DNA of 64,000 bases from an uncultured Chthonomonadaceae bacterium (GCA_963817895.1 CAWFQB010000014.1:416001-480000); one strand, 5' to 3'. Positions 16,154 through 58,189 are shown, counted from the stretch's first letter. The notes: generated by a model from the letters alone, not told the origin. A program made the numbers and translations.

Positions 16154-18888
<2,735 letters not shown>

Positions 18889-30482: not shown

Positions 30483-30683
30483 CTAGCATCCTCTCAATTC
30501 CGTGCCATCCCGAACATGCTAATTCGTGATAGCAGAGTATAACGCAGATCAACCATCGTGTCAAGCAATAATTTTCGAGTTTTCGATTTTATCCAATCCG
30601 TCCATAGTTCTGTTTCTCTTCTTCTGCCGGCGAGCGTAAACACGTGCGGGGCTAGCGCGAAAGAGGACCCGCATTTCGCCCGC

Positions 30684-31949: not shown

Positions 31950-31971
31950 GGAATCTCCTGTCAGTTTAAGA

Positions 31972-34828: not shown

Positions 34829-34935
34829 TACGTAAACCTCTGTGCGCCGTATGATCCGGCAATATATTTCCTGTCAGGCCTTTCAAGCAACCCCGGATTA
34901 CTATAACCTGACTGCTCGCTATTACAGGAGGACAC

Positions 34936-36663: not shown

Positions 36664-36730
36664 GTGTTTTGTTCCTTAGAGAAGGATACCGCCCAAAGTG
36701 TCTTGGTCCGGGTGTCAACGGATTTGCCGT

Positions 36731-37063
36731 TCAATTCCGGCAAAGAGGGTCTTTAGCTATGCCAATCGTGCAGCGTCGAGACAGGGACGCCGCGACCGCG
36801 CGAAGATTTTCCCGCAACCGCTCCTCACTGTGAAAGCCCACACAGCAGGCACTGATCTCCTGCGCCAGAACAAAGCGCAGCGCGGCTTCAGGGATGCTGT
36901 AAGGCTGGAGAAAATCCAGGAGCGTTGGGGTGTCGTATGGTGGGACAACGGGAAGATTGCCGTCCGCGATGTGGCGACGAATACATTCTAAAGCGGCATT
37001 CACATGCATAAAAGTCTCTGACGAAAGTGCGGGCGTTTCGTAATGCAGCATTTGGCCTCTCAA
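36731..37063 (-). pseudogene. 3' fragment resembling an aldo/keto reductase C-terminus
   Basis: IPEAALRFVLA...VG...ERLRENL; no N-terminal part. Confidence 0.4.
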
Positions 37064-37136
37064 CTTGTGATAATGCTCGAATAGGCGGTCAGCCGAGGAT
37101 TTCCTACAGACTGCCGCAATATCTGTTCTCAGGACA

Positions 37137-40100
37137 TTATTGCTTGTTTGCGCCCCCGCTAAGGGTACTGCCAGACTGCACCTTATACGCCCCTTGGGTA
37201 TTGCGGGTCAGGTCACAGCGCCATGCCTCGGCAACGCTCTGATCGTCCGCCAAAATCCCGGCAAGTTGATTGCCATTGAGGGTGCAATCCCGCAGTTCGG
37301 CGCGGCCGGAATGGAGAGCGATTCCTGCGCCGCCGTTACTGTACAGGGGGCTTTTCTCCACGGTTGCATGGCCGCCACTTCCAATCCAGATGCCGTCGCG
37401 CGTATTATGATGCGCCTGGCAGCGTTGAATAGTCCCATTGGCTTTGTCGCTGACGCTGATGCCCACCGCTGCATTGCCGAAGACAAAACAATCCTGGAGG
37501 CTGCACACGCTGTTCGCGCCTATCTTGACGCCATCCTCCTTGTTATTGAATACCTGACAGTGATAAAACTCCCCTTTACCGCCGTCTATTACGCTTACGC
37601 CGGTCCACCCGTTTGTGCCGATGTCACAGTCTCTTACGATTCCGTAGCCGCCGCGTCCGATCCAGATGCCGTGATGCTGATTGTTCTGCGCCCGGCAACG
37701 CAGTATGGTTGCCGTCGCGTTATCGCCAACGCCCACGCCTGCCGACACATTGCCAACCAGGATACAATCCTGCAGGCTGCCCGTGCTGTTCATGCCCAGC
37801 CACACGCCATTCTCCTGATTGTTCAAAACCTGACAGCGATAAAGGGTCAGTTTACCGCCATCTACGATGTTTGCGCCTTTCTCCCCGTTCTTGCCGATGT
37901 CGCAGTTTTCAGCAACGATCTGGCCCTCCTGGGTCGCCGTAATCCCCTGATGCGCGCCATCATGAATTTTGCAGCGTCGTAATAAAATGGAACCGCTGGC
38001 CCGCGCGAGTACATTTGCGGAGGGACTGCCGGAGAGGTCGCAGTCCTCGAATTGCGCCCTCGCATGGGCGATCACGAGGACGCCTTCCTCTTTGCAGTCG
38101 TGAACCCAACACTTCGTCGCGAAAACATCGGTTTTCTCGCCGGACGCGATCAACCCCGCCCCCGTCTCGGAACTGAGAGCGCAGTTGAACAGGGTCAAAC
38201 GTCCTGACGTAATTCCTGCCGCAGGGACGGGCTTGCCCGCAGGCGCGCCTTGAACGCGCAGAATGATTCCACGCAGTGTCACATCCGCCTCCTGCACGAA
38301 GACGCACGGGCTGCCTGTTGCCTCGATACGCACTTCTCCCGCCGGATTGTTGCTCGTCAATTCCACAGACTTATCAAGTACGAGGCTCTCTTTGTAAATT
38401 CCCGGATCAATAAAAATGCGCGTCCCGGCAGGAACATTGCGGATGGCTTCGGTAATGGAAGCGAACTGTCCCTCGCCATTCTTGCTTACCGTGATGTGGG
38501 GCGCAAGATAGACTCCCAGAGCTAAACGCGCCGTAACTTCCTCTTGCGCCTGCTCCCAGGCGTCCCGCTTGATCTGGCCTCCCGGCGTTTGCAGCACCGC
38601 CAGCAAAGGCGCAAGGGAGGCGTTGTCTTGCAGCCGCGCCTGAAGGAGTTCAGGGCTGACTCCCATCTCCGCCGCCGCCTGCATCAAATTAAGCGGCGCA
38701 TCGTATTTTGTCGCGAGGGCGACGATGGGTTCCGCGCTGCCGATTTCCGCGCCCGTCGCGTGGATGCCGGCAGCATAACGCTTATTGTCCCCTTCCATCA
38801 GGGCGGCAAGGCGCGAAGGTTCCACATACAGCCCCAATGCCCGGTCGCGGTCGTAGTCCGGGGTCGGGGTTTTCTCAATCACAGCGCGCACCTGATCCTG
38901 GAAGCGTCTGAGTCCCTGCGTGTGACAGGTCATGCACGTCAGTCCATTGCGGACAACCGGGTCGCTTGCGTTCTCCTTGTTGGTGACGATTTCCACCGGC
39001 CCCGCGTTGATTCGTTCTCCATTGCTGTTGACAAGCATATAGCCCTGCAATCCATTGGGCAGGTTGAAGATGATTTCCCCGCCCGCCACATCAAAGAAGA
39101 TTGGATTCTGAAAGATGTTTTGCTTGCCCACGCTGGAACTAAAATCATACGAGCGCCAGTAGGCTCCAAATGCGGCGTCATGCCGCTCCACAATGCGATT
39201 GTTGCGTGACACGCCGCTCTCGCCAAATCCGGCGCGTCGAGCGTTTCCTTGCCGAATATTCCTGTTCGCATCGATCCCCAACTTCGCCTCAAGCTCGAAG
39301 ACGGTGCGCGGCAAGCCCAACAGTGCGTGATAGAGTAAGGGTTGTCCAGCGCGCGCCACAAACCAATCGGCGCGCGCGCACAGCATTTCACAATCGGTAG
39401 CGGCGCGAACGCTCTGCCCGACGGCGGTTTGAGCGACAACGGCATAAGGATAGAGCGTGACCAGTTTGCGCCAGGTGTCCGCCGTCCAGGAATAGTGGCG
39501 TATATCAATGCGCAGAATAGTCTGGGCGGCATCTACGGGCTGCGGCACGGCAATGCGTTTCTGCCACGACAGACTGTTGAGGAGTTTGGACAGGGCAAGG
39601 CTATACGCATGGAGAGCGTCGTCGCTGACGCCGGCATTATAGAGATGGGTAAGGGTAAAATAGCGCGTGTATTGCCGGTCAGGTTCCTTGATTCCGTCGA
39701 TGATCTGCCCTGATAGCCGTATAAGTGGTTTCGGTAGAAATGAACTTGCGCGAACCGGAGGTAGACTTTCCGATGCCTTCCGCACCCGCTTCGATCCAGG
39801 CTTTGAGAGTTGCTTTCTCGTCCGACGTAAGAGCGTCCTGTCGGCTTTTGGGCGGCATTGGGTCATTGGGGGAGAGAACGGCGCGGATGTAGATGCGCGA
39901 ATGTGCCGGGTCGCCGGGCTTAATCTGGTTTTTGGCTAGCATCGCAACGCGATCATTGATGTCAAACCCGGCGGTGGCATCCGCGCCGTGACATTTGCTG
40001 CAATGCGTGGTAAAGATCGCCTGCGCCTTTTGCGGCAGTTCGGAAGTATTTTGGGCGCCAGCATCCTGTCGGCTGTCAACAAGGACAAGCAGCGTCAGGA

Positions 40101-40143
40101 AGAGAGCGAGACCAACCCGGATGGATAAATGGAGGGGCAACAT
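37137..40143 (-). CDS. Planctomycete-type cytochrome c domain + second heme-motif domain + right-handed beta-helix; frameshift near 39720
   Basis: Signal peptide, CSKCH, PGDP..S, MPP...WIEAGA; CMTCH; about 400 aa of parallel beta-helix repeats (N..GI.V...A..TI..C). Confidence 0.75.
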
Positions 40144-40270
40144 GGTTTTCAATTTAACATCCCCTTGTTAACGAGGCTTACGCGCCGAAACAACTTTTCT
40201 AAATTCCTACTCTTGCATCGAACAGCAACCTGGCCGCTTTTCGTAAGTGATTAAGAGCATACAGACCTGG

Positions 40271-40309
40271 ACGAAATCAGCGTTCCGGTAGTAGGGGCGC
40301 TGATTTCGT
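40271..40309. terminator. Hairpin downstream of hyi fragment 1
   Basis: ACGAAATCAGCG-15 nt-CGCTGATTTCGT. Confidence 0.6.
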
Positions 40310-40337
40310 TTCCATAGATAGGATCGTTTGCAATAGT

Positions 40338-40569
40338 CTATACGTCACAGGCTTTGTACGCCTGTTCCAGCGCGGCGACCGCATCGCGTTTGGGTGTGAA
40401 TTCCTGTCCCACATAACCGTCGTACTCCGTGGCGGCAATGGCGCGGCAGATGGCGGGATAGTAGAGTTCCTGGTTCTCGTCGAGTTCGTTGCAGCCCGGA
40501 TTGCCTGCCGTGTGGAAATGCCCGATGTAGTCTATGTTGTCGCGCAGGGTGCGGATCACATCGCCCTCC
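40338..40569 (-). pseudogene. Displaced 3' end of the hydroxypyruvate isomerase-like gene (copy 1)
   Basis: EGDVIRTLRDNIDYIGHFHTAGNPG...AYKACDV*, nearly identical in protein sequence to the C-terminus of 50846-51604. Confidence 0.9.
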
Positions 40570-40866
40570 CCTTTTTACATGCCTACAATGCTCTTGCGGA
40601 CAACAAACCGTGGCGCAACACCCTAAAGCTTAGTGATTCGGTTCTTGAACTCAAGGATTAAGGCTTTCTTTGCCGGCAAGGCGCATGCCGACAAGATGCG
40701 AGGCTCCTCTTGACGTAAGATCATCCATGTCCGACTCCCAGCACTTGCGGTCTGCCGTACAAACCTTGACTATTTGATGTCAGGTAGGTTTCTGCTTGGG
40801 GTAGAATTTCAGATACGAGATGACAAGGCTGGCCTCCCTTAGTTCCAGTTCAGTCTCCTGATTGCT

Positions 40867-42259
40867 TCAACGCGCCACCAGTTCTGGCAACTGTTTCTCG
40901 GCGATTCCGATCTGCCGATCCAGCGGAATGCCCGCACATGTCAGCAGCGTGCCAAGCAGATCGCCCTGGTTACCTTTGACATCGGGGAGATAACATCCGG
41001 TCTTGAGCGATCCGCCGCCTTTACCGGCGATGATAAACGGCAGGTTCTCCCTGGTATGTTTGTTTCCGTCTTCCAGGCCTGATCCCCACATCAAGATGCA
41101 ATTGTCGAGTAGTGTGCCGCTGCCTTCCTTCAAGCCGGCCATCTTCTTCACCATGTAGGCAAATTGAGCCACGTTGAAAGCGTTGATCTTGGTGACCTTG
41201 TCGAGCATCACGGGATTGTTGTTGTGGTGCGTCTGGGAGTGATGCTCGTCACTGAAGCCAAGCTCCGGGTACGACACGCCGTTTGGTGTCGACCCGATGT
41301 AAGTACTCACACGGGTGAGATCGCACTGGAACGCCAGCACGTTGAGGTCGCACATTACCTCCATGTACTCGCTCCGTTTGTCGCCCGTGGGGATTTTGAC
41401 CTCAATCGGCACCGAACGGGCGGCGACCGTGTTGGAGGGGGCGACGTTGGCCTTTGCCAGAGAACTCTCTTTCTGCCGCGCCTGGATTGCCGCGATTCGT
41501 CGTTCCACAGCGCGCACACTGTCGAGATACTCGTCCAGCTTCTGCTGGTCGTCACGGCTCAGTTTTCCGCGTAGTTCCTTTGCACCGCCCAAAACCAGGT
41601 CGAGCATCGAACGGTCCAGTGGGTCATAAGAGGTCTTACTCGCGGGACCGAAGCCTGTCTCACGGCATTGGAACAATCGCTTGAGAACGCTGGCGGGATC
41701 TATCTCGGCCGGCATCGGCTGGCGAGGCCCGCGGAAACTGCAGTGCGAGTAATACGCTTCGTGCAGCCCTTCCTGGTGCTCCATGTGTGTTTGAGGCATC
41801 GTCGCCAGTTCCAGCGACGGCATGAGGAGTGAACGCGCCGACATAGTTCGCGGCGATCTGGTCGGCAGAGGTGGCGATGTTCACGACTGCCCTGCTTTTG
41901 CGAATCCGGCAAGGTTGCCGTCAGCCAGGTGGAGAGTTCCAGAGCGTGGGGCGCGCCGTTGAACGGCGCGATGGGCACGCCGCTGATCCCCTTCACCAGT
42001 AGGCACTGATCGAGTACGCCACGCAGCGGCTCCAGGATCGGTGGTGGCGACTTCAAGAACCCGGCGGAATCCGTTGGCCAGAATCGCTCGGGGATCACAC
42101 CGTGCGGCATGTACATGAAACCAAGCCGTACCGGTGGTTTCGACGCGGCGGGCGACTTCCGACCATCCGCCCAGCCCATCGTTTCCAGCAGAGGCAACGA
42201 AAGCGATACACCAAGCCACTCAGACAGGTTCGGCGACTGATAAGAACGTTACTTCGCAT
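40867..42259 (-). CDS. DUF1552 (HxxSHH) Tat-exported protein, frameshifted near 41850-41890
   Basis: [49 protein letters not shown]. Confidence 0.85.
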
Positions 42260-44198
42260 TTTGGGTCTCTCCTGTATTGGTCACGCGACGATGGGTAAAG
42301 GGATCACTGGTCACCACGCTAAGTACGAGCGTCTGCATCCGATAGTCATCTTTCTTGATCGAGTCTGTCATTTCATCTACTACGATCTCATCATACCCTT
42401 CCAGCTGCCGACCAAGTGCATACGCCAGCAGTTTGCCGGTGAGATTTCGGCAGAAATCATCCTTTCGGTCGGCTATGATCCGCTTGAGTTCCGCAGGGGT
42501 GGTGAAATGGAGTCCTCCCGGCAGTTCGCCGGAGGCATCGATCTTACCGGCGGAATCATCTACAGTTCGCCAGCGACCGATCGCATCGAAATTCTCCAAC
42601 CCGAAACCGATCGGGTCGAGCACCTTGTGGCAGCTCGCGCAAACGGCGTTCGAACGATGTAGCTCCGTGCGCTGTCGCAGCGTCATGTTCGCTATTACCA
42701 GTTTGTCCTGCTTCTCCAGCGTAGGCACATTGGGTGGGGGCGGAGGCACATGTTCGCCAAGTACCTGCTCCAGCACCCAGACGCCACGATTCACAGGGCT
42801 GGTGCGGTTTGGAAATGAGCTATTTGCGAGAATACCAGGCATTGTAAGGATGCCGCCGCGGTTGGAATTCGTCAGAGTTACACGTCGCATCTGCTCGCCG
42901 CGAACGGTCCCCTCCATCCCATAGATAGTCGCCAAGCTCTCGTTGAGGTAGGTGGAGTTGCTATCGATTAAGGTTGTCAATTTGAGGTTATTACGAAGGA
43001 CCTCTTGAAAAAACAGGCGGGCCTCGTCGTACATTGCCAATCGCATTTTCCCCGTCATCTGAGGAAACTTCTCGGTGTCGAACATCTTGCCCTCAAGCTT
43101 GTCCACGCCGAGCCACTGTGCCCCAAATCCATCGAACAGCGCCCGCGACCGCGGATCTTTTAAGAGCCGTCGGGCTTGGGCTGCGAGTACCTCGGTGTTC
43201 TGTAGTTTCCCAGAGTCTGCCAGTGCGGACAACTCGCCGTCGGGCATCGTCGCCCACAGCAGATACGAAAGGCGTGACGCCAGTTGATAATCGTCCAGAG
43301 GGACCATCTCCTGTGACACCGTCGTATTGCCGCTGCTATTCGCTTTGACGGGCGTGATAAACAAGAACTGCGGTGACACCAGGGTCGCCTTGACCATCAA
43401 TCGCAGCGCTTCGGGATAGGGTTTGCCGTTCTGTCTCGCCAACGAGAAAACTCGCATCAGGACATCCACTTCCGCATCCGAAGCGGGCCGACGAAACGCG
43501 AGACGAGCCAGTGATCGGGCAACTTTCCGCGCTGCCGCCGTGGGATCCACTCCTTTATCCGGCAACTCGCCGAGCAACCTCCGCTGCACTGCTGTCGGCT
43601 TTGATCCGGGGGGTGAAAATGACTTGTCCAGAACATTATTCGCTATTGAAAGGTATTTCTCGATCAGTAGTGGCGAGAGTGTGTTGGTGTATCCCGCGCC
43701 GACTACCTCATCTGGCAGCTCTCGTGCAATCGCAGGATCGACACCGAATATATCATGAAGGGTGTTGCCATATTCCCGCTTGTTCAATCGTCGAATGACA
43801 AACAAGCCAGGATCCTTCGGCACACGTTTCTTCATTCCTGCTACCCATTCGATGACCGCCCTGCGTTCCTTTTCGCTCGGTTGCCTACTCTCATTCGCCG
43901 GTGGCATGTCATGAGCCGCGATCTGGGTCGACGCTCGCTTCCACAGCATCTGGAACGCCAGCCCGTTCGGATTCTTTTGTAAATCTTGGAATGTCACACC
44001 TCCGCTCCGCCTGTTGTCTGTATGGCAACGCAGGCAGTAGGTCTCCATGAACGGTGAGACCTCGTTCTTAAAGGTTTTGGCCGCTTCGGTGCGTGCCCGG
44101 ATTAAAGCCGCGGCATCATTCTTCGATGAGTCGTCCGCGCACAGCGCTGTCGGCAGCGCCAGCAGCAAGGCGGTGAGGAGTGTTATGGTGTGTTTCAC
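42249..44198 (-). CDS. DUF1592/DUF1588-family planctomycete-type cytochrome c protein
   Basis: CLRCH, RRLNKREY.NT, LASRLSYLLW, RTSPVNRGVWV, CASCH..DPIGFGLENFD. Confidence 0.88.
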   Translation of the reverse strand: MKHTITLLTALLLALPTALCADDSSKNDAAALIRARTEAAKTFKNEVSPFMETYCLRCHTDNRRSGGVTFQDLQKNPNGLAFQMLWKRASTQIAAHDMPPANESRQPSEKERRAVIEWVAGMKKRVPKDPGLFVIRRLNKREYGNTLHDIFGVDPAIARELPDEVVGAGYTNTLSPLLIEKYLSIANNVLDKSFSPPGSKPTAVQRRLLGELPDKGVDPTAAARKVARSLARLAFRRPASDAEVDVLMRVFSLARQNGKPYPEALRLMVKATLVSPQFLFITPVKANSSGNTTVSQEMVPLDDYQLASRLSYLLWATMPDGELSALADSGKLQNTEVLAAQARRLLKDPRSRALFDGFGAQWLGVDKLEGKMFDTEKFPQMTGKMRLAMYDEARLFFQEVLRNNLKLTTLIDSNSTYLNESLATIYGMEGTVRGEQMRRVTLTNSNRGGILTMPGILANSSFPNRTSPVNRGVWVLEQVLGEHVPPPPPNVPTLEKQDKLVIANMTLRQRTELHRSNAVCASCHKVLDPIGFGLENFDAIGRWRTVDDSAGKIDASGELPGGLHFTTPAELKRIIADRKDDFCRNLTGKLLAYALGRQLEGYDEIVVDEMTDSIKKDDYRMQTLVLSVVTSDPFTHRRVTNTGETQNAK

Positions 44199-44389
44199 AT
44201 TCAGTTCCTTCAGTTGAGTGTTTGCAGACCAAGGTTTTACGCCTCTTCCCAAGGCGCCCTGAGCTTCGGTTTCGCGGTGAGGAACTCGAGGCAGCGGCGC
44301 AGCTTGCCTTCCTTTAACCTGCACGAAATCAGCGTCCCTACCACCGGAACGCTGATTTCATTTCCATAGATAGGATCGTTTGCAATAAT

Positions 44390-44620
44390 CTATACGTCAC
44401 AGGCCTTGTACGCCTGCTCCAGTGCGGCGACGGGATCACCCTTCGGCGTGAATTCCTGCCCGATGTAGCCGTCGTAGCCGGTTGCGGCGATGGCGCAGCA
44501 GATGGCAGGGTAGTAGAGTTCCTGGTTCTCGTCGAGTTCGTTGCGGCCCGGATTGCTGGCCATGTGGAAGTATCCGGGTGTTCGGTGTTGTTATGCAATG
44601 TTCTGATTACGTCGCCGTCC
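44390..44620 (-). pseudogene. Displaced 3' end of the hydroxypyruvate isomerase-like gene (copy 2, more decayed)
   Basis: [10 protein letters not shown]...[18 protein letters not shown]...[23 protein letters not shown]; 1-nt deletion near 44580. Confidence 0.88.
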
Positions 44621-44665
44621 CTTTTTTACATGCATACCAGGCAAGGACATGACTTATTAGATGAA

Positions 44666-47600
44666 TCAGCCAAAATAAAGGAGATCAGGCAATTTCTCCG
44701 TTAGGTTAATGAACCATTGCTCACCACGTACAGCGGTGAAATCAGAATCATTTTCTACATGCTTCTTCCCCATGTGCGGCAAACTAGGCAGCGCGAGATG
44801 CAACTCACTTCGGCATTGCTCTGCCTCACCCTTGCGGGCGTAGCAGCAGGCAAGATCATAGTGTGCGCCTGCAATTACCTGAGCGTCATACCAGGGCATT
44901 GTCAAGCACGTTTGCAGAACCTCTTGTGCCCGTTCGAGGTGGTTTAGCTGAAGTAGAATTTCGCCCCGTGTAGCATTCAAACGAACATTGCGTGGCATAC
45001 AGGCAATCTGTGCGTCGATTTCTTTGAGAGCCGATGTAAGTAGTTCCTCCTTACCCGGTTCCTGTATGTGTTGATGCCAACCATTCATTACGTTCTTGCA
45101 TGATCCGCTCGACAGCAGCTTCTGAACGGCTGCCTGTTCTCGCATCCAGCCCGAAACATACTCCGCTTGATTTGAGCGCAGACTCGCAATTGAAAGCGCA
45201 GGCGGGAAGTACCATGTTTCGGCAGCAACGCCATGTCCATTAACAATACTGCCGTTTTCCAGCCAATGATGCCGATCATGCACCCAGCCAATGCCACTGC
45301 ATATCCATTTTTCACAATCGGCGGCAGTGAAAGAAGGAGTATGCTGGAAAGCCCGGACGATATCTATTGCCACGCGATGCGATTGGCTGAGTAGATCGCT
45401 CTCAAACTCCAATGTGGGAACCTCAACCTTATCCGTGTCGCAGAAGGCGCTTAGGGTTGTGTATACGCCCTGATACTCATGCTTCAAGCGTGAAGCAGGC
45501 AGCCCGCGTATAGCTGTCAGCGCTTGATCACACACGCAGCGGCAATCTCGCAAGGACAATGCAACCGGTGAGAACATGGCGCGCAAGGTATGGCTGAGTA
45601 GAACCGCGCGCCAGTCCGTAGCGTCACATGCCCATTCCCATAATATAGGCACAGCATTCTCTTTGTTGACATGCGCGTGGAGCGTTTCCAGAATGGTTTC
45701 GGGCGCGCGGCGGATGTCCGCTTCCAGACTGCTTAACCTGGCCTCCGTCCCCAAGCTTCGGTTAGCCAGTAGTTCCGCGTAAGCAGGCGGAAGCAAGGCA
45801 GCCTCGCGCAGCGCATACAAGAACAGATCACGGTCACGAGAGATATTTCCCTCAACATTGATATGCTTCGCACAAACGTCACCAGCCTGTTCGATGATCT
45901 CCGGCGTGATACGCCTGGTGTGTACAAGCGCAGTGCAGAAACGCAACAAAGGCCAATCCGGGGGCAGTGCGGCTACAATAGCTGCGGGATTGTCCACGTA
46001 AGGCGCGCAAGCGCACAGCCAATCTGTCGCCAAGTTCGTTACCCTAAACTGCCATTCGGATGGACTTCCATCAGCAGGATGAATGTTGTATTCTGCGTCT
46101 TCTCTAGCTGTCTGGCATAACAATCTGTACCAATCTGTAAATAGTGAATGGGTGGCTATTTGACTCGCGAAGCGTCCACAAGTTTCCAGTGTCTGCACAT
46201 ACAGGAAATTATGGTTTGTTTCCAATGCGAGATGGTGAAAAATCATCGGTGCCTCGGCTGCCGCAGCGGACATGCCTCCGATGTCCAAAGCGATCCGCGC
46301 AAGAACCGCAACAGACGCACTGTAGGCAGCAAAAGCCCTGTTCTTATTTTGAATGTCCTCGTATAATGGCCCAGATAACTCTTCCAGCACACTTCTCGCA
46401 TGAGCATCATGGGGAACTTGGCTGGCGTACTGCCACCATGTGAAAGCTAACAACTCATTGAGCAAGGTTCGCGCGGAGCCGAAAGCTGTGTCAAGCCTGC
46501 CGGGGAGCATATTACCAACAAGGGCTGGACGGATACAAGCAATGTGTGCCAACAGTGTCAACGCAATGCCACACGCCCTTGTGTGCAGCATATTGCCCTT
46601 CTGTATAGCCTCAATTACAGATTCGGGATCACTTTCTGTGTAAAAGTACAGTAATCGAGACACGTCACCAACAACAGCTTGCTCCGTACCTGCCTGATGA
46701 AAGACAACTTCCTTGATATGCTCGGGGCGTCCCTCGGCGACGGGCAACAAGGCACGTGCAGCGGCTTGACGTGTCCAGAGGTTCTCATCACCAAGTTCCT
46801 GTACCAACACGGGAATGTCTGCTCCATTTCCAAACAGCGCCACGCGCCCCCGGATTGCATCAATCTCATAGCCCAAGGTTTCACGCACGTCCATGCGTTC
46901 GGGTTTGCGTGGCGACACGTAACGGCTTTGAAACCAGGCAAGAATCCAGTGTGCAGTTGCAGCAGCCTCAGCATGGCTGACAGCTTGCAAAGGCTGAAGT
47001 GCGCCACTCAGGTAACGTGCTTGCTCTCTGTTTTCGGAACTCATCATGAAGCCAGAGGGTCGCTGTAGATCGCGCCTCAGTCGCAGCAGCATTCGTCGCT
47101 TGACCCAAGAAGGAGCAATCTCCAGAGCAGCGCTCAAGGCAAATTGGCCTTTTAGAGCCTGCGTTTCTTTCTCGTCCGCATACAGTGTTCCAATCCAAGC
47201 GCGGGCGTAACTGGAATGTCCCGCCATAGCCCCCAAAGCGCGCATGGCGTTCCATGTGGAATAAGTTTCGTCACGATTAGACCAGGCGGTTAGCATAGCT
47301 GGAATACGCCAGTCGTCTCCCTGACGCTGCGCCAACCCCTGCGCCAGAGCGCTTAACCAACGAGAATCGCACTCCAGAACATGTCCAGCCCATTTCACTG
47401 CATCCGGTTCCACTGTTTCGATAGCCTGACGCACCAGTGCTGTCATTATGCCGTCGTCCAGCCCTGGCTCCATTTCAGCAAGCACATCTTCGTTCTGCGA
47501 CATGCGACCGGCCAGCCAAAGTGCCGTCAGTCGGTCGCCGAATTGTGGATTGGCATACACAACAGCACCCACCGGAGCCTTAATGTCTGCTGTGCGCGTG

Positions 47601-49786
47601 AGGATATCCTCAGATTGCAGGGCGGGCAGGACTTTCCGCCCAAATCCGGCAAGAACACCATCTATGGATTGAACAAGCTCTCCAGAGGGCTTTCCTACTC
47701 GACGGGCATGCCACATTTCAGCCGCCAGCAGCTTACTGAGATCATCAATTTCGTCTGGTTCACAGGCGGAGCGACGTGCAACTTCGTTGAAACGATATTG
47801 AGCTTCCTCATCTAACAGCACATCAACATCGACAGCTACTGGTGTTTTGACGTTGCCGCCGGAGAGATACTGGCGGATGTAAATCTTCAACAAATATGGA
47901 TTACGCAATGCTGCAAACGCGGAGTGTCGTAGTGCAAGGGCGATTTTGTCTACATCGGAAGAAGCGGGAAGCCGACATACAAGCATAGCTTGCATTTCAC
48001 TATCGGATAATCGGGTAAGTTCGTAAGAGTATAACCGAGACTTGTCCAGCTTGTTTGTCTTATCTGTATTGTCCGGCTTGTCTGTGTTATCTGTCTGTTC
48101 CGGCGTGATTACATGCCGGAACAGGTAAGGCGCAAGGCGCTTGCCCTGCGACAGTCGTTGCCAAACGCCGGATCGGACGGACAGCGCCAGCTTTATGCCT
48201 CGATGTTGCGCTTCTTGACACAGAACTTCTAGTTTATCTTCAAAGGCAGCGGGATCGCTTGAAAGTAGAACCTCATCGGCAATAAGAACAAACGTCTCAT
48301 GTAATGTATCCGACGCTATACCCTTTAGCTGCTGGAATAATTCCTCTGCCGTCGCGTCCGGACGTGTCACGCCGGATAGTGATTCACGGATTAGATCAAC
48401 CAAGGAGCGGCATTGTTCAAGTTGAGTTCCGCGTATCAGCAAGCGTACACTGTTATTGAGTCTCTCTGCGGCTTCGGCATAACATTCCCACGACTTGCCA
48501 CAGCCGCTATTGCCAATAAGGACAAACAGAGGGCGGTCACTTTTTCGGAATTCCTCAAAAGTGGCGGCAAGATCAGACCGAGAAACATACAATTCAGCCC
48601 GCCAGTCACTCGGCAGTGAGCGTTCCACCTGTTGCTGACATGCCTGAAGAGCATCATCGAGAGGAGGTTTGCGCACCATTGACGTTCCTGAATCCGAGAT
48701 GGCATTCGCTTCTTCGTTGCAGGGCAGCTCCGAAGGAGTGAAAACCTGTGTTACGGCCTCTCTTTTCACAGGCTGAATCAATTCAGGGAAAAAGTTAGGG
48801 TTTTCCAAGCAAAATCGCAACAGACTTACGGATGCGGCAGCAGCTTTTTTCTGCCAACCGTCACCTTTGCCTACACCCCAGTCGCAGATGCCTTTGGCGA
48901 ATAGAAACCATGCCTGCCCCTCTCGCTCCTTGTTGGAGTAGGAGAGCACGCTGGTTCCTAATCCATGCCCTTCCATATCCAGCCCGATAGCGTCCTTGTA
49001 TTCCGCACGGAGTTCCTCGCGTCGGTTGAAGTGATTAAGAAGTTCGTCCCCCGAAATGACCAGTCCACTATGAACACGGCAGCGGCGAGAACCGTAGTCC
49101 GCCTCGGGTGCTGTCTGCTGCCACTCTTTCGCATGTTCAAGTAAAAGATTAAGACGGTCACGGTTGGCAGCAAACCGCCCGCCTCGATTCTCAGTGCGGT
49201 CTACTTTGGTTGCCCGAAAATTATGTTGCCACAGACTGGAAGCAACCAAGATGTCACCTATTTGCTGGGTGGAGGCTGAATCATCCGTCTCAGGAGTCAT
49301 ATACTTCGGCAAGACTATCGTCTTATTTTTGGTTTTCAAGGTTGCACGAAGCAACTCCGCAATATGTAATGGCAGTTCGCTCTGGTTGCTCGGGCTGAAG
49401 TACTTTTCTAATTCTTCGCAGGCAATGGTGGTTTTATCAGAGGCGCTTCTTTTAAGGCCACACGCGATGCCAGGCATAAGTACATAAAAGGATTGTGAAC
49501 CACCAGTCCCTCGCAGTTCTGCGAGTGCAGCAGTGATCTCTGTCGCTGCATTCATACCAGCCTGTCCGCACATCAAATGAGCCGCCAGGTACTTGCCGAA
49601 GTAACCGAAGCGGTACTGCTGGTAAAGTGGAATTATCTCCTCTACGAATGGTTCAGCGTCAAGTACCACGTTGACGGCATCTGCCTCTACCTGCATGGCC
49701 GTTACAATTAGAACGTTGACCCTCTGCCTCAGTTCGTCAAACTCTTTTTTGCTGATTGATCGAGTCATTGTGCTTGTCCCTGACAA
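44666..49786 (-). CDS. Nucleoside phosphorylase (PNP/MTA-SAH nucleosidase) effector + STAND NTPase + helical/TPR sensor; Avs-like putative antiphage protein
   Basis: VLIVTAMQVE, MPGIACG, IGDILVA, SGDELL, LDMEGHG, KGICDW; Walker A GNSGCGKS, Walker B FVLIADE; C-terminal HYDLACCYA...DSDF..VR TPR end. Confidence 0.8.
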   Translation of the reverse strand: MSGTSTMTRSISKKEFDELRQRVNVLIVTAMQVEADAVNVVLDAEPFVEEIIPLYQQYRFGYFGKYLAAHLMCGQAGMNAATEITAALAELRGTGGSQSFYVLMPGIACGLKRSASDKTTIACEELEKYFSPSNQSELPLHIAELLRATLKTKNKTIVLPKYMTPETDDSASTQQIGDILVASSLWQHNFRATKVDRTENRGGRFAANRDRLNLLLEHAKEWQQTAPEADYGSRRCRVHSGLVISGDELLNHFNRREELRAEYKDAIGLDMEGHGLGTSVLSYSNKEREGQAWFLFAKGICDWGVGKGDGWQKKAAAASVSLLRFCLENPNFFPELIQPVKREAVTQVFTPSELPCNEEANAISDSGTSMVRKPPLDDALQACQQQVERSLPSDWRAELYVSRSDLAATFEEFRKSDRPLFVLIGNSGCGKSWECYAEAAERLNNSVRLLIRGTQLEQCRSLVDLIRESLSGVTRPDATAEELFQQLKGIASDTLHETFVLIADEVLLSSDPAAFEDKLEVLCQEAQHRGIKLALSVRSGVWQRLSQGKRLAPYLFRHVITPEQTDNTDKPDNTDKTNKLDKSRLYSYELTRLSDSEMQAMLVCRLPASSDVDKIALALRHSAFAALRNPYLLKIYIRQYLSGGNVKTPVAVDVDVLLDEEAQYRFNEVARRSACEPDEIDDLSKLLAAEMWHARRVGKPSGELVQSIDGVLAGFGRKVLPALQSEDILTRTADIKAPVGAVVYANPQFGDRLTALWLAGRMSQNEDVLAEMEPGLDDGIMTALVRQAIETVEPDAVKWAGHVLECDSRWLSALAQGLAQRQGDDWRIPAMLTAWSNRDETYSTWNAMRALGAMAGHSSYARAWIGTLYADEKETQALKGQFALSAALEIAPSWVKRRMLLRLRRDLQRPSGFMMSSENREQARYLSGALQPLQAVSHAEAAATAHWILAWFQSRYVSPRKPERMDVRETLGYEIDAIRGRVALFGNGADIPVLVQELGDENLWTRQAAARALLPVAEGRPEHIKEVVFHQAGTEQAVVGDVSRLLYFYTESDPESVIEAIQKGNMLHTRACGIALTLLAHIACIRPALVGNMLPGRLDTAFGSARTLLNELLAFTWWQYASQVPHDAHARSVLEELSGPLYEDIQNKNRAFAAYSASVAVLARIALDIGGMSAAAAEAPMIFHHLALETNHNFLYVQTLETCGRFASQIATHSLFTDWYRLLCQTAREDAEYNIHPADGSPSEWQFRVTNLATDWLCACAPYVDNPAAIVAALPPDWPLLRFCTALVHTRRITPEIIEQAGDVCAKHINVEGNISRDRDLFLYALREAALLPPAYAELLANRSLGTEARLSSLEADIRRAPETILETLHAHVNKENAVPILWEWACDATDWRAVLLSHTLRAMFSPVALSLRDCRCVCDQALTAIRGLPASRLKHEYQGVYTTLSAFCDTDKVEVPTLEFESDLLSQSHRVAIDIVRAFQHTPSFTAADCEKWICSGIGWVHDRHHWLENGSIVNGHGVAAETWYFPPALSIASLRSNQAEYVSGWMREQAAVQKLLSSGSCKNVMNGWHQHIQEPGKEELLTSALKEIDAQIACMPRNVRLNATRGEILLQLNHLERAQEVLQTCLTMPWYDAQVIAGAHYDLACCYARKGEAEQCRSELHLALPSLPHMGKKHVENDSDFTAVRGEQWFINLTEKLPDLLYFG

Positions 49787-49862
49787 TTATGTTCGTACCA
49801 CATAGCCTATGGGCGAGTGAATGAAATATTAATCCGCATCTTGTTTGCGTATAAACCTGCAA

Positions 49863-50501
49863 TCAGTCCTTCGATTTTGCAATGTCCCGTAACAGTTTTA
49901 TGCGCGTATCCATCCGTTCTCGAAGGTCGTCGAACGTCATACAGCTCACTTTGTTCGCGTTGATGGAAACCTTCTGCGTACGCCAATGAAGCCGTTCTCG
50001 CATTGTATTGTCAAGGTATTTACTTCGCCCAATGAGCAGCAATCCTGAAAAACTGTGCAGTTCGCCGCCAAAGCGCTTGCGGAAATCAATGTTGCCCCGG
50101 TACATATCAAGCGCCCAAAACCAGTCTATTAATTGTGAGTAGCCGTGTTCAAAGCGGCGTCCCCACTCATCATGGTATTTGTCCCCACTGCCGAAAACGC
50201 TATAACGACGCGCATCTTCTATTTCCACCAGTACGAATTCGCCACTCTGCGAATGCCCCGCCGCCCAATCGCAGCGGAAGTTGCCGAAGAGATCAAGTTC
50301 AAACCCGAACAAATCTATCTCCTCGATACGCAGGTTCCAGGAGGCGGCAAATGTGGCAAGATGAGGCCGTGACCCAAAGAAAGGCAACAGGTCGTTCTTT
50401 TCCGAAAGTTCATCCTTGCTGTCCAGAAGCGCGCCGAATTCTGCAAGTTCCTGCTCGCACTGGTCAAGCGAAAACTGAAACTTCGAGAGTTCCTTGCTCA
50501 T
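49863..50501 (-). CDS. Shedu (SduA/DUF4263) nuclease-domain protein
   Basis: FRCDW, FVLVEIED, GYSQLIDW, LLIGR, MTFDDL. Confidence 0.75.
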   Translation of the reverse strand: MSKELSKFQFSLDQCEQELAEFGALLDSKDELSEKNDLLPFFGSRPHLATFAASWNLRIEEIDLFGFELDLFGNFRCDWAAGHSQSGEFVLVEIEDARRYSVFGSGDKYHDEWGRRFEHGYSQLIDWFWALDMYRGNIDFRKRFGGELHSFSGLLLIGRSKYLDNTMRERLHWRTQKVSINANKVSCMTFDDLRERMDTRIKLLRDIAKSKD

Positions 50502-50770
50502 CCATATCTCTCAGCGAAGCGCCTGTTGAGTATGTCCAGGACAGTGATACTGTCTTGACCAACAGTAAACGCTACCAGCAAATCATTTCCAGTCCGAAGC
50601 ACATATGTGGGGTTCTCCTCCGTTATGTCCTTAAGTCGGGCAATGTTGGGGTCCGACAACCCACATTCGGCCAGCATGTGAATGCGGGTGAGTACGCGAT
50701 TGCGCTCTTCTGAATCCAGAGAACTGAGCGCATCTTCAGCTTGTGGATAATAGTGTATGGAATATGACAT
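50498..50770 (-). CDS. RelE/ParE-fold small protein
   Basis: YSIHYYPQAEDALSSL...YVLRTG.DL.VAF...ITVLDIL.R; ATGA overlap with the Shedu gene. Confidence 0.6.
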   Translation of the reverse strand: MSYSIHYYPQAEDALSSLDSEERNRVLTRIHMLAECGLSDPNIARLKDITEENPTYVLRTGNDLLVAFTVGQDSITVLDILNRRFAERYG

Positions 50771-50845
50771 TGTTTTACTTTCCAAGAACGTTCCCTGCCC
50801 TCGATTCATTATACCATTTCGGGCAGAGAGGTTTGTTCACATCCT

Positions 50846-51604
50846 TTACACGTCACATGCCTCGTAAGCCTGCTCCAATGCTGCAACCGGTTCGCCCTTT
50901 GGCGTGAACTCCTGCCCCACATAGCCGTCGTAAGCGGTGGCGGCAATGGCGCGGCAGATGGCGGGATAGTAGAGTTCCTGGTTCTCGTCGAGTTCGTTGC
51001 GCCCCGGATTGCCTGCCGTGTGGAAATGCCCGATGTATTCGATGTTGTCGCGCAGGGTACGAATGACATCGCCCTCCATGATTTGCATGTGGTAGATGTC
51101 GTACAGCACTTTTACGCGGGGCGAGTTGACCAGTTTGCACACGTCCACGCCCCAGGCAGTGTGGTCGCACTGGTAATCGGGATGATTCACTTTGCTGTTG
51201 AGCAGTTCCAGCACGAGGGTAACGCCCGCCTGCTCTGCAGCCTTCGCCACCCGGCTTAACCCTTCCGCCGTATGCTCAATCCCCGCCGCGTCGGGCAGGC
51301 CGTTGCGGTTGCCGCTGAACACGATCAGGGCGGGAATGTGCCACTTCACGGCGAGTTCCAGATTGGCGTTGAGTTCCGATTCGATGCGGTCATGGTTTTC
51401 GCGCCGGTTCAGGCCGTCGCCGAGCGACTTATGCCCGCCCATTGTGATGATCTGCAAACCGCCATCGGTAATCTGCGGCCACAAATCTTCCGGGGCCATC
51501 TCCACGCCCGCGTAGCCAATACGCTTCGATTCTTTGATAAGGGTTTCCGCGCCCACCTTGTTCGCCAGCGCCCACCACGCGAGCGATTGCTTGATTGCTG
51601 CCAT
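50846..51604 (-). CDS. hyi: Hydroxypyruvate isomerase family TIM-barrel protein (intact)
   Basis: LELLNSKVNHPDYQCD, LYDIYHMQIMEGD, HFHTAGNPGRNE, YVGQEF. Confidence 0.88.
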   Translation of the reverse strand: MAAIKQSLAWWALANKVGAETLIKESKRIGYAGVEMAPEDLWPQITDGGLQIITMGGHKSLGDGLNRRENHDRIESELNANLELAVKWHIPALIVFSGNRNGLPDAAGIEHTAEGLSRVAKAAEQAGVTLVLELLNSKVNHPDYQCDHTAWGVDVCKLVNSPRVKVLYDIYHMQIMEGDVIRTLRDNIEYIGHFHTAGNPGRNELDENQELYYPAICRAIAATAYDGYVGQEFTPKGEPVAALEQAYEACDV

Positions 51605-51634: not shown

Positions 51635-53152
51635 TTAAGCCAACACGAGAGTCAGTTTTGTCACGGATGCCGGAGTCAGCGTCAAATTGCCTAAAATGCC
51701 TTCGGGATTCGCGCCTTTCCATTCCTCGGCTCTTACATTGTCCGGTTCGTCGTGGGTGTTGTGCGCGTGAATGTCGCCTTTCGGGTAGGCAAGCGTGGTC
51801 ATGGCCTCGAAACTCGCCTGCCCGCCACCGAAAAGTTTTAAGTCAATGGCCGCTTCCTCCGTCGCGCTTGTGTTGGTCAGGGTCAGGGTCAGCGTGTTGC
51901 CTTTCACGCTTGCCGAACCGGATACGACAGGCAGTTTTTGCGCTTTGCCGTTCACGGTCACGTCCACAGTGGGCGTGTCGCACAGCAACCGGACGGCCTG
52001 CCCGTTATGATGATCCTTGTACATGTGGTACACATGGTACGTCGGGGTTTTCAGCATTTTGTCGCCGTCTGTCAGCAGAAGGGCTTGCAGCACGTTGATG
52101 GTTTGCGCGATGTTTGTCATCACCACTTTATCCGCGTGGCGGTTGAAAATGTCGAGCGTGAGCGAAGCTACAAGCGCGTCCCGAACCGTGTTCTGCTGCC
52201 ACAAGAACGCGGGATTATGGCCGGGAGTTGCCGGGTGCCACGTTCCCCACTCGTCCACGATAAGGCCGATTTTGCGGTCAGGGTCGAAGGCATCCATGAG
52301 GGCGCGCTGCTGAACGACAAGCGGCTCCATCTGTATCGCTTTCCACAGCAGTTCGTACCATTGCGCTTCCGTGTACTCGGTTGCCGTGCCTGCCGTGCCG
52401 CAGTAGTAGTGCGCGGCGTAGCCGTGAACGGGCGGATGATGCCCGTGATCTTTTTTCAGTTTGGTGAAGAAGCGGCGCGTCCAGTCCAGATCGTTGGTGT
52501 TGGGGCCGCAGGCGATAAGGTACAGAGGGTCCGCGCCCCAGTTGCGCAGATAGGTGGCGAACCGGCGGTACTCCGTGCCATAATCTTCGGGCGTGAAATG
52601 CCCGCCACAGCCCCAGTTTTCGTTGCCCACACCCCAGTAGCGGACATTGTACGGCGCGTCCTGCCCATTCGCCCGCCGCTGTCTAGCCCATTCGCTGTCG
52701 CCGGGAAAATTGCAGTATTCCACCCAATCGCGCATTTCGCGGGGGCTGCCGCTGCCTAAATTGCCGCAAAAGTACGGCTCGGCCCCGACAGCGCGGCAAA
52801 AATCCATGAACTCATGCGTCCCGAACTCGTTGGTTTCAATCACGTCGCCCCAGTGAATATTGATACGGCGCGGACGTTTTGCGCGCGGTCCCACCCCGTC
52901 AATCCAGTGGTAATCATCCGCGAAGCAGCCCCCCGGCCAGCGAATGAGGGGCGCTCCCACCTCCTTCAAAGCGGCAACCACATCGTTGCGGACGCCGCCC
53001 GTATGGGAAATAAGCGACTCGGTTCCCACCCAGCAACCCTCGTCTATGCAGCCGCCCAGATGTTCCATAAAGTGGCCGTAAATGTTGGGGTTGATGGTTC
53101 CTATCGGCTCGTTGACAAGCACATTGACGGCAATCGTTGGCATATTCGGCAT
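51635..53152 (-). CDS. GH51 alpha-L-arabinofuranosidase (cytoplasmic AbfA type)
   Basis: IYGHFMEHLG, RWPGGCFAD, WGVGNENWGCGG, VDEWGTW, NIAQTINVLQ. Confidence 0.92.
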   Translation of the reverse strand: MPNMPTIAVNVLVNEPIGTINPNIYGHFMEHLGGCIDEGCWVGTESLISHTGGVRNDVVAALKEVGAPLIRWPGGCFADDYHWIDGVGPRAKRPRRINIHWGDVIETNEFGTHEFMDFCRAVGAEPYFCGNLGSGSPREMRDWVEYCNFPGDSEWARQRRANGQDAPYNVRYWGVGNENWGCGGHFTPEDYGTEYRRFATYLRNWGADPLYLIACGPNTNDLDWTRRFFTKLKKDHGHHPPVHGYAAHYYCGTAGTATEYTEAQWYELLWKAIQMEPLVVQQRALMDAFDPDRKIGLIVDEWGTWHPATPGHNPAFLWQQNTVRDALVASLTLDIFNRHADKVVMTNIAQTINVLQALLLTDGDKMLKTPTYHVYHMYKDHHNGQAVRLLCDTPTVDVTVNGKAQKLPVVSGSASVKGNTLTLTLTNTSATEEAAIDLKLFGGGQASFEAMTTLAYPKGDIHAHNTHDEPDNVRAEEWKGANPEGILGNLTLTPASVTKLTLVLA

Positions 53153-53514
53153 AATCGGCTGACTCTCCCTAAGTGAAATTTTGGATATACTCCCGCTGTA
53201 TTTCAACTGAGGGCAGGCGAGTTCCTGCGTTGTTTCTGCCTGCAACACGCATTTTTGCCGGAATACGAGGCTGGTATCGTAACGCTTATTCTCAATAAAT
53301 GGGATGCAGACAGGAAAAAGGTCGGCTGTATGTTTGTATACATAGCCGACCATAAATTTAACGATATAATTTTTCCTATGTTTTTGGAACTATGCGCCCC
53401 CGTTTACGTGAATAACTGCGAGGCCCCGATACGTCTCGCATGGAACGTTCCAAAAGCATTAAGCATTAAGCATTGAGAGGGTAATCTTTCTGCTTAACGC
53501 TTGACGCTTTCGCA

Positions 53515-53904
53515 TTAGCCCTCAATCCTCACCGCGGAATACCCGTTTCTCAACGTTAAAAACCACGTATGACGGCGAAGTTCCGCCTGTTCCGTAAACT
53601 GTACGCCGCACTCGTACCAGGTTATGCCCGCTTCTTCCACAAGATGCTGCCGCACAATGCGCGCCCTTCCTACCCGCAACGCCGTATCGTGTGGCGGATG
53701 AATCAGGATTTCGCTGCCGCAGGGCATGCATACAGCCATGCGCAGTTTCAATCCCTTGCGGCTGATGTCCACGCAGGGACATTCGTAAATTCCCATCTGT
53801 GGATGTTCCACTCTCAATGTTTTGGCAATGCACTTCTGGCGCAATGCGTCGCGCCGATCATCATCCAATGCGTTGATTATATCTTTTTCGGCTGTAAGCG
53901 TCAT
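53515..53904 (-). CDS. PilZ domain c-di-GMP receptor
   Basis: RRDALR (RxxxR) and DISRKG (DxSxxG); start overlaps the upstream subtilase stop (TAATG). Confidence 0.85.
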   Translation of the reverse strand: MTLTAEKDIINALDDDRRDALRQKCIAKTLRVEHPQMGIYECPCVDISRKGLKLRMAVCMPCGSEILIHPPHDTALRVGRARIVRQHLVEEAGITWYECGVQFTEQAELRRHTWFLTLRNGYSAVRIEG

Positions 53905-55793: not shown

Positions 55794-55820
55794 AACCTCA
55801 CTCTTTCGCCTGATAGTAAC

Positions 55821-55909
55821 TTCCGCTTTGAAGTCGCCGGAATGGAGGCAGAGCGAACCTCTACAAGGTTATGCCCGGTTTGCGCGTGTTTTCGACCAGT
55901 TATAATTGC
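55821..55909 (-). promoter_or_regulatory. Conserved structured leader and promoter-like box upstream of subtilase 1
   Basis: Aligns with 58082-58169, with compensatory changes in the stem. Confidence 0.6.
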
Positions 55910-55953
55910 GGGATAATGTAAAGACGAGAAACGTAATTACTGAACAAGCATAT

Positions 55954-55997
55954 CTATCCGGTAAGCCGCCTAAAGTTACAGGCGGCTTACCGGATAG
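55954..55997. terminator. Strong hairpin between the two subtilase genes
   Basis: CTATCCGGTAAGCCGCCT-8 nt-AGGCGGCTTACCGGATAG. Confidence 0.7.
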
Positions 55998-56106
55998 TTA
56001 TCTCTACTCAGCTATATTCCCCACACTATGCGCCCACAAACGAGAGTTTTGTAATCCGGCCCTCTTGACAGGGTGCGACCGGGACACGTCTGCTGGTTAA
56101 CCATCA

Positions 56107-58047: not shown

Positions 58048-58081
58048 ACCGTTTATAGCCTCATCCTCAGCTTTATTTAAA

Positions 58082-58169
58082 TTCCGCTTTGAATCACTGG
58101 AATTGAGGTACAGCGGACCTCAATAAGGGTATGCCCTGTATACTGACAGATTCCGTCTATTACAATTGC
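58082..58169 (-). promoter_or_regulatory. Conserved structured leader and promoter-like box upstream of subtilase 2
   Basis: Second copy of the 55821-55909 motif. Confidence 0.6.
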
Positions 58170-58189
58170 CTGATTCTTCTTGCCTGATT

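Follow-up and report, generated by a model that had tools for sequence, protein, structure and literature searches.

Integrons collect small, co-oriented cassettes of one or two genes at a single site, and these cassettes share a short conserved end sequence and have no recombinase of their own. In the icd gene of Escherichia coli, phage 21 and e14 are inserts that bring a replacement 3' end, with mainly synonymous differences, and displace the old end of the gene. Here we analyse a hyi-like gene, the displaced copies of its 3' end and the gene blocks lying between them in a 64,000-nt stretch of DNA from a soil bacterium, an uncultured member of the Chthonomonadaceae (GCA_963817895.1, CAWFQB010000014.1:416001-480000), hereafter the window, which is numbered from its first letter and belongs to a 778-kb contig. 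Unlike the icd inserts, each of which is single and has its own integrase beside the gene, the hyi locus is an array. Unlike in integrons, no intI gene was found beside the hyi arrays, and their cassettes are bounded by a 231-nt gene fragment.

Tandem accretion of ICEs (integrative and conjugative elements), IMEs (integrative and mobilizable elements) and CIMEs (cis-mobilizable elements) at gene 3' ends, namely fda and tRNA-Lys, is described for streptococci in passages of PMC7563491. As in those passages, elements free of recombination genes are stacked at the hyi locus behind the 3' end of a metabolic gene, with direct repeats of that end between them. In the streptococcal account, however, ICEs and IMEs that bear an integrase often share these sites, and the repeats consist of short attachment (att) sites, whereas no integrase-bearing element was found in the hyi arrays of 14 genomes, their repeats are ~231 nt long and the crossover points vary.

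Core defence hotspot 1 (cDHS1) of Pseudomonas aeruginosa (PMC10250203) and the minimal mobile elements of Neisseria (PMC1797815) have variable cargo at one position between conserved flanks; the portions of the two reports that concern them give no mobile-element hallmarks and propose homologous recombination with the flanks. How defence islands are built without such hallmarks is named there as an open question by the cDHS authors (PMC10250203). The hyi locus resembles these systems, as those portions present them, in having variable, mostly defence cargo without mobility genes at one site. It differs from them in that the role of the 'flank' falls to one gene end, of which a further copy stands between every two cassettes, so that the array is tandem and has homology arms inside it as well as a conserved junction, and in that the arrays occur across many genera of a family and not among strains of one species. 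Thus the locus lacks the recombinase that defines the integrase-borne families and the intI that defines integrons, and it has the features examined of a recombinase-free hotspot: differing cargo between conserved flanks, no mobility genes and variable breakpoints within the flanks.

The novelty lies in a homology arm that repeats itself, together with a conserved junction, and builds arrays throughout a family. A literature search that was not exhaustive turned up analogues only and no description of hyi-linked arrays. Because each insertion leaves a dated, codon-bearing scar in the form of a displaced gene end, the order, source and crossover point of the events can be read from the sequence. 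If the junction motif is a recombination site, the locus would represent a new platform for cassette capture in a phylum that has received little study; if it is not, duplication of a gene end is by itself enough to make a self-extending cassette array out of a housekeeping locus. The intervals from a hyi end to a hyi fragment also offer a cheap harvest of candidate defence genes from Armatimonadota.

Results and discussion

A family-wide insertion hotspot

Copies of the hyi 3' end mark an insertion hotspot that is family-wide; blocks of genes have been stacked there, and each block has left a displaced gene end. A tblastn search over fetched loci of the family (Chthonomonadales/Chthonomonadaceae, Armatimonadota) returned 30 partial hyi 3' copies in 14 genomes; wherever the intact gene is present at the locus too, fragments were situated downstream on the strand of the gene (20/20 cases). 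A quality-filtered search of the class found fragments in 12 of the 31 genomes of the window's own family (f1) and in none of the 21 genomes of two sister families (f2 and f3), although full-length homologues are present there. Arrays were seen at two of the 79 metagenome loci that have a hyi-like end (58-81% identity).

Comparison of the locus among relatives revealed both an empty site and differing cargo, and with arrays in 14 genomes it bears out the recurrent insertion at this gene end that the original prediction had proposed. Genomes such as G005, on one complete contig, carry a single hyi copy. All three congeners differ in cargo, with Shedu, a large NTPase and a DUF1592/DUF1552 pair in the genome of the window (G000), HEC-01 A/B in G001 and Septu PtuA/PtuB (matches at 1e-101 and 1e-64) in G002. 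Further arrays hold PDC-M38, PDC-M28, small HNH genes, STAND and AAA_35 NTPases, a cytosine methylase, ankyrin proteins and some plain metabolic genes; about 40% of the cargo open reading frames (ORFs) have no Pfam match. Fragments shortened to a start at aa 187-234 are common, and a diverged hyi homologue in G011 has a fragment of its own. Other pieces of the gene were seen as well: an N-terminal one (aa 3-118) upstream of the intact gene in G017 (L047:1823-2170) and a middle one (aa 49-117) behind a fragment in G008 (L051:5939-6145).

Displaced gene ends in the window

Orthologues of the hyi-like gene were present in 39 of 41 relatives, and a paralogue with 48% identity is located on another contig of G000. 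The best NCBIfam model for the gene, OxoTetrIsom, scored 107.6 bits (cut-off 325) and OH-pyruv-isom (TIGR03234) 96.8 bits (cut-off 353); as both scores are far under the curated cut-offs, we call the gene hyi-like only and not hydroxypyruvate isomerase. Its ORF is unbroken, and direct repeats of its 3' end flank the inserts (Table 1).

The repeated portion comprises the last ~231-243 nt of the gene. Its recurrence at two further sites, predicted for the last ~230 bp, was confirmed by a repeat search, which returned one direct-repeat family of three 243-nt members (40339-40581; 44391-44633, 70% ungapped; 50847-51089, 86%), and by BLAST inside the genome, with gene-end copies 83% and 87% identical. 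Alignment likewise upheld the claim of a common breakpoint with a shared replacement sequence: both displaced fragments share one start point, at which the CATGCAAATCATGGAGGGCGA of the gene is swapped for CATGTAAAAA(A/G)GGGA(G/C)GGCGA, and this replacement stretch places an in-frame TAA at codon 175. Past the stop codon the two fragments have ~75 nt in common, including a hairpin, which the intact gene is without. The hairpins of the two copies have identical stems and 15-nt loops that are mutually reverse-complementary, i.e. the hairpin is flipped between the copies.

One more piece of the hyi 3' end, a decayed fourth copy, is located outside the window, 3.8 kb ahead of its start and on the strand of the others (G000:C14:412155-412250, corresponding to L012:16155-16250). 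It is 96 nt long and 80% identical, and the near-invariant middle block is all that survives. The remnant adjoins SLATT/DUF4231 and SLOG (LSDAT_prok) genes and TPR proteins; together with these neighbours it suggests that the accreted region may span about 55 kb.

Table 1. Features of the hyi locus in the window, in the order of transcription of the gene
Feature	Position	Strand	Description
Intact hyi-like gene	50846-51604	minus	252 aa, xylose-isomerase-like TIM barrel; Pfam AP_endonuc_2 1.1e-26
Repeat copy 1, 3' end of the intact gene	50847-51089	minus	last ~90 nt of another lineage than the first ~140 nt
Cassette A	44640-50845	minus	103-aa ORF (50498-50809), Shedu SduA (49863-50501), 1706-aa protein (44666-49786)
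Junction motif U (TGGTATGCATGTAAAAAAG)	44621-44639	minus	directly 5' of the 44k fragment; holds the in-frame TAA
Displaced hyi 3' fragment, 44k copy	44391-44620	minus	first ~90 nt decayed (1-nt deletion, several non-synonymous changes); remainder well kept
Terminator-like hairpin after the stop of the 44k fragment	44325-44359	minus	10-bp stems; loop is the reverse complement of the loop at 40273-40307; 39-nt inverted match
Cassette B	40589-44324	minus	DUF1592-family gene 42249-44324 (likely start near 44197); DUF1552 gene as two ORFs, 41700-42197 and 40867-41844; 290-nt trailer; Pfam
Junction motif U (TTGTAGGCATGTAAAAAGG)	40570-40588	minus	directly 5' of the 40k fragment; identity to G006 stops here
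Displaced hyi 3' fragment, 40k copy	40339-40569	minus	open 76-codon frame
Possible third insert	30590-40338	minus	hairpin, PSCyt1/beta-helix gene (37137-40152, two overlapping ORFs), unknown ORFs, split rhamnosidase; without a terminal hyi fragment; Pfam

The ratio of non-synonymous to synonymous substitution rates (dN/dS) between fragment and intact end was 0.05-0.16 in all 13 pairs. Within the window it was 0.071 for the 40k copy (dS 0.61; 21.5 synonymous and 7.5 non-synonymous differences) and 0.086 for the 44k copy (dS 1.02), and the open 76-codon frame is kept in 10 of 14 translated fragments. Low dN/dS and open frames therefore show that the fragments diverged as working gene ends. The copies are not neutral, and the view of a former working C-terminus differing mostly at synonymous sites stands.

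This history makes it improbable that we are dealing with static relics, i.e. leftovers of old hyi duplications or rearrangements among which cargo differs through ordinary gene gain and loss. Other partial hyi pieces in G017 and G008, the many old and shortened fragments and the break in synteny seen at this locus on comparison with G001 and G002 would agree with such relics. Against them stand the ten fragments with an open 76-codon frame and low dN/dS, the differing cargo in all three congeners and cassette B, which is 95% identical between genera with hyi proteins 72% identical and lies between fragments in both.

An assembly artefact is hardly credible. The many split genes in G000 do suggest indel errors; on the other side, the copies are 13-30% diverged, so that collapsed-repeat misassembly is not an issue, the same layout is found in 13 other genomes and two metagenome contigs, and cassette B and its borders are covered by independent contigs. 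The genes split into two overlapping ORFs include DUF1552 (40867-42197), the rhamnosidase (31961-34828), PSCyt1/beta-helix (37137-40152), a peroxidase (16264-18595) and DprA (G000:C1:330360-330981), and contigs of relatives differ from the window by single-base indels at 41823-41895. Split genes of this kind are either widespread pseudogenes or assembly indel errors, which also bears on the 1-nt deletion of the 44k fragment.

Cassette B shared between genera

Cassette B matches contig G006:C119 of another genus with 95.3% identity over 3446 nt, and there too it lies between hyi fragments. In 30-nt windows the identity is 27-30/30 from the stop codon of the preceding fragment onward and 25-30/30 across the genes, the trailer and the junction motif, and it falls to 15-20/30 exactly at the border between junction and core. 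The fragment ahead of the cassette is only 57% identical to its G006 counterpart over the first 90 nt and about 80% in the rest. Since the cassette is near-identical from the stop codon on while the preceding fragment is not, that fragment represents a recombination joint outside the travelling unit. A start of the near-identity inside the fragment, at 44542, was considered and rejected, as the window-by-window identity puts it at the stop codon.

In four soil or peat sequencing runs from four studies, analysed as assembled contigs (at most 0.14 of the sampled words occurred in any run), contigs covered 90-99% of cassette B. One of them stops at the junction/core border of the cassette, and in another a hyi end and the cassette are linked, 570 other bases separating them. 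No contig of the four runs covered 44.8-49.6 kb, within cassette A, which is not evidence of its absence.

Four other genomes contain the DUF1592/DUF1552 pair at 81-91% identity and with no hyi fragments adjoining it, and the homology is limited to the two genes; it is thus an ordinary gene pair that was captured into the array. At these loci outside the hyi arrays (L063, L064, L065 and L066, from G044, G056, G009 and G010) nucleotide identity reached 89-91% in three other genera. This is well above the ~75-80% of hyi, and the pair therefore seems to move between genera independently. Another shared unit, a two-gene cassette coding for a 103-aa protein and a 133-aa HNH protein (78% and 72% identical), is located directly upstream of a fragment in two different organisms, G012 (L043:4328-5037) and the source of the metagenome locus L086 (543-1252).

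Junction motif and the case for a possible enzyme acting in trans

The 19-nt junction lies directly 5' of the core and is common to five cargo contexts in four genera, in which the flanks further upstream are unrelated. A looser 12-nt form, in which ATG precedes a stop codon and a purine-rich stretch, was found in about five more contexts, including L086, and a 25-31-nt tract of junction plus core is common to many cassettes. Between G002 and G017b the junction is conserved at 17/19 positions and the adjoining fragment at 34/43; conservation of the junction is thus not clearly above that of its neighbour and does not by itself prove constraint. By eye, the 19 nt contain a palindrome of 6 bp at most.

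Pairwise alignments had suggested that the junction is decayed hyi sequence. A shuffle test upstream of the junction in 15 well-kept fragments supported hyi homology in G048 (z 10.6, 0/300 shuffles) and marginally in G007 (12/300), and left it unsupported in the other 13, by which that idea was set aside; significant hyi homology thus does not reach beyond the junction in 13 of the 15, hence the 5' limit of the repeat is nearly fixed. The motif was not found elsewhere in G000 beyond the two fragments, save for one chance-level near-match on the same contig. A search of public collections for the junction pattern returned four matches in genome_contigs, all of them known arrays, and none in metagenome_contigs or viral_contigs; recombinases were seen neither in nor near the arrays. 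The idea of a Xer/dif site was also dropped, since a dif-like consensus gave no convincing site in G000 and nothing resembling the junction.

The conserved 12-19-nt junction abutting unrelated cargo keeps a trans-acting recombinase in play. Such an enzyme, host-encoded or borne on an unsampled master element, would insert circles composed of the junction motif, the core, a replacement hyi 3' end and cargo at the hyi core, in the manner of CIMEs or integrons, and homologous recombination would later blur the repeats. We regard this as a serious possibility, if one that falls well short of being probable. It would account for the replacement 3' end, for displaced copies in register and always downstream on the same strand, for the nearly fixed 5' limit and for dN/dS values of 0.05-0.16. 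It would likewise fit the right border of cassette B, which in G000, G006 and a soil contig coincides with the junction/core, and the intact gene of G002, which switches lineage at the core. Small cassettes co-oriented with hyi agree with it too: a hand count from ORF lists gives this orientation to 29 of 30 cargo ORFs when the long G048 array is left aside, and to 8 of 16 within that array.

Several observations speak against such an enzyme. No integrase or resolvase was found in or near any array, and no viral contig with a hyi 3' end was found. The fragment upstream of cassette B does not have cargo-level identity, decay has gone further in the proximal fragment than in the distal one, and the arms flanking the core are dissimilar between gene and junction. 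The original prediction of repeated site-specific integration at a metabolic gene holds for the hotspot and its cassettes without a recognisable recombinase; on site specificity itself, the nearly fixed 5' limit and the cassette B border at the core stand against switch points that vary (at columns ~48, ~92-140 and ~190) and cassette B travelling without the upstream fragment.

Search for recombinases and mobile elements

Catalytic domains of integrases, resolvases and transposases were absent from all 105 ORFs of 16 array loci in 13 relatives, where there was only a single IS605 OrfB HTH, and from all 10 ORFs of the two metagenome arrays (integrase, resolvase and transposase core), in accordance with the prediction of compact cassettes without a recombinase of their own. 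The absence of an integrase from the surroundings, remarked on for the window, extends to the whole 778-kb contig: none of the nine PF00589 and three PF00239 matches of G000 is located on it. Among the PF00589 matches listed for 42 genomes of the family (63 weaker ones stand outside this set), the tyrosine recombinases nearest to an array are situated upstream of it, at a distance of 13 kb in G020 and 31 kb in G023. In G007 and G012, which carry arrays, there are only two high-scoring Xer-like tyrosine recombinases and no serine recombinase, a further point against insertion by an enzyme in trans. In viral_contigs, 82 pattern matches to the hyi 3' end yielded no confirmed case. ComEC and DprA homologues are present in G000; the same families match in 10-11 of 14 control genomes, and they are hence uninformative.

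HNH proteins were considered as mobility genes and discarded, as they do not form one family (72% between G012 and L086; 23-28% to others). Homing, in which a cassette- or phage-borne endonuclease would cut the hyi core and repair from an array-bearing template would copy the cassette, appears very unlikely. Small HNH genes do lie directly upstream of a fragment in G012, G048, G007 and L086, and a fixed cut site would explain the fixed border. Against homing speak, besides the diversity of the HNH proteins, the lack of HNH in most cassettes, both cassettes of the window included, and the putative cut site kept by the intact gene.

Proposed recombination between the gene-end copies

As no recombinase gene was found with them, the blocks are likely swapped by recombination between the gene-end copies. 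We accordingly lean, tentatively and with somewhat less than even confidence, towards cassette turnover driven by homologous recombination of the host between repeated hyi ends. Each fragment would act as a portable homology arm, being the right arm of the cassette before it and the left arm of the cassette after it. Incoming DNA from relatives, arranged as hyi end, cargo and fragment, would recombine with the resident hyi end, the outcome being a gene whose end is intact but partly of foreign origin, plus a displaced copy. Most crossovers would be expected within the ~50 nt of the repeat that are nearly invariant, or else within the 25-31-nt tract of junction plus core. If one took place upstream of the stop codon in the junction, it would carry that stop into the working gene, inactivate the gene and be lost, and under homologous recombination the sharp 5' limit of the repeat would be due to this.

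The repeats are mosaic. In a tree of the 231-nt segments, fragments grouped with the intact end of their own genome in six genomes, which indicates concerted evolution. The intact end and the 40k copy, which is the one nearest to the genus-typical end (89% to the G002 fragment), agree at 41/46, 42/44, 48/48, 37/49 and 33/44 positions in successive segments, that is, at 131/138 over the first 140 columns and 70/93 beyond, with a switch near column 140. The fragments of G001, G023 and G006c match their own gene at 185/187, 180/187 and 174/187 positions (about 94-100%) for ~190 nt and at 68-77% thereafter. Those of G048 and G006b have a foreign, 'ISCIR'-type sequence for the first 48-100 nt, followed by host-type sequence. 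Switch points are thus found at about columns 48, 92-140 and 190 of 231. The intact hyi of G002 (L035/L036; G002:C37:235604-236365) is of the foreign 'ISCIR' type from the core on and has two frame shifts that leave about 45 codons out of frame; these reflect either a pseudogene or long-read indel errors.

Taken together, the missing recombinase, variable switch points, concerted repeats and fragments acting as joints argue for homologous recombination. Decay of the first 90 nt of the proximal 44k fragment is expected if that part always lay outside the working gene. Confinement to one family (12/31 against 0/21 genomes, and 2/79 metagenome loci) is expected if sequence homology limits the spread. 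Variable switch points, the decayed proximal fragment and the small number of recombinases fit homologous recombination at least as well as site-specific insertion.

There is also weight on the other side. Against homologous recombination stands the conserved 12-19-nt junction abutting unrelated cargo; cargo replacement right up to the junction is difficult to derive from neutral descent. So do the 5' limit shared by 13 of 15 well-kept fragments, the near-identity of cassette B between genera ending exactly at the junction/core border, as in the soil contig, and the G002 gene turning foreign exactly at the core. Transfer between genera, moreover, needs recombination across 20-25% divergence. 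The architecture is classical for integrase-mediated insertion, and an unknown recombinase could be hidden among the roughly 40% of cargo ORFs without a Pfam match. Neither homologous recombination nor insertion in trans accounts for the founding event that made the first junction or for the genesis of new cassettes.

A broader conception is that of an integrase-free analogue of integrons, in which the hyi 3' repeat and the 12-19-nt junction form a portable recombination site; an unrecognised trans enzyme or the host machinery would capture single operons, among them ordinary chromosomal genes like the DUF1592/DUF1552 pair, stack them into a co-oriented defence array and pass them between genera of Chthonomonadaceae. 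We consider this possible but less likely than not.

Cargo and neighbouring genes

Of the defence genes predicted for 44666-50770, in cassette A, Shedu SduA is solid, with a PADLOC match of 2.8e-66 over 205 of 211 positions and Pfam SduA_C at 1.7e-19 and 70.9 bits (cut-off 27), which places the SduA/DUF4263 nuclease domain in it. The 1706-aa protein, also counted there as defence, is only weakly STAND/NTPase-like (nSTAND1 at E 8.8e-4, below the cut-off; PDC-M60C at 2.7e-8); it further has TPR_END_plus and a PRK05584-like, nucleosidase-like stretch. Cassette A was not found at the hyi locus of G001 or G002. For cassette B, Pfam agreed with the DUF1592/DUF1552 pair that had been suggested as cargo, with the DUF1552 gene split.

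The cytochrome/beta-helix gene had been named as a possible further cassette. In G002, sequence homologous to the window from 30581 downward follows straight after the last hyi fragment, and the 9.7 kb at 30590-40338 are therefore extra in the window; this stretch was not found at the hyi locus of either G001 or G002. A third insert is accordingly plausible, and the missing terminal fragment tells against it. The beta-helix gene contains an internal tandem duplication of 271 nt (70% identical) at 37360-37906.

Further downstream are a WD40-caspase protein at 1803-4499 (PADLOC caspase, 8e-15) and, at 19356-19925, a truncated AAA_35/BTAD gene; a full-length AAA_35/BTAD gene comes after cassette B in G006. 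On the other side, hyi is positioned at a synteny break: the DNA upstream of hyi in G001 and G002 matches about 58.7-77.5 kb in window numbering, in the opposite relative orientation. Within the stretch compared there, 51635-60691, the part at 51635-58190 codes for an arabinofuranosidase, a PilZ protein and two subtilases and is absent from the locus in both G001 and G002.

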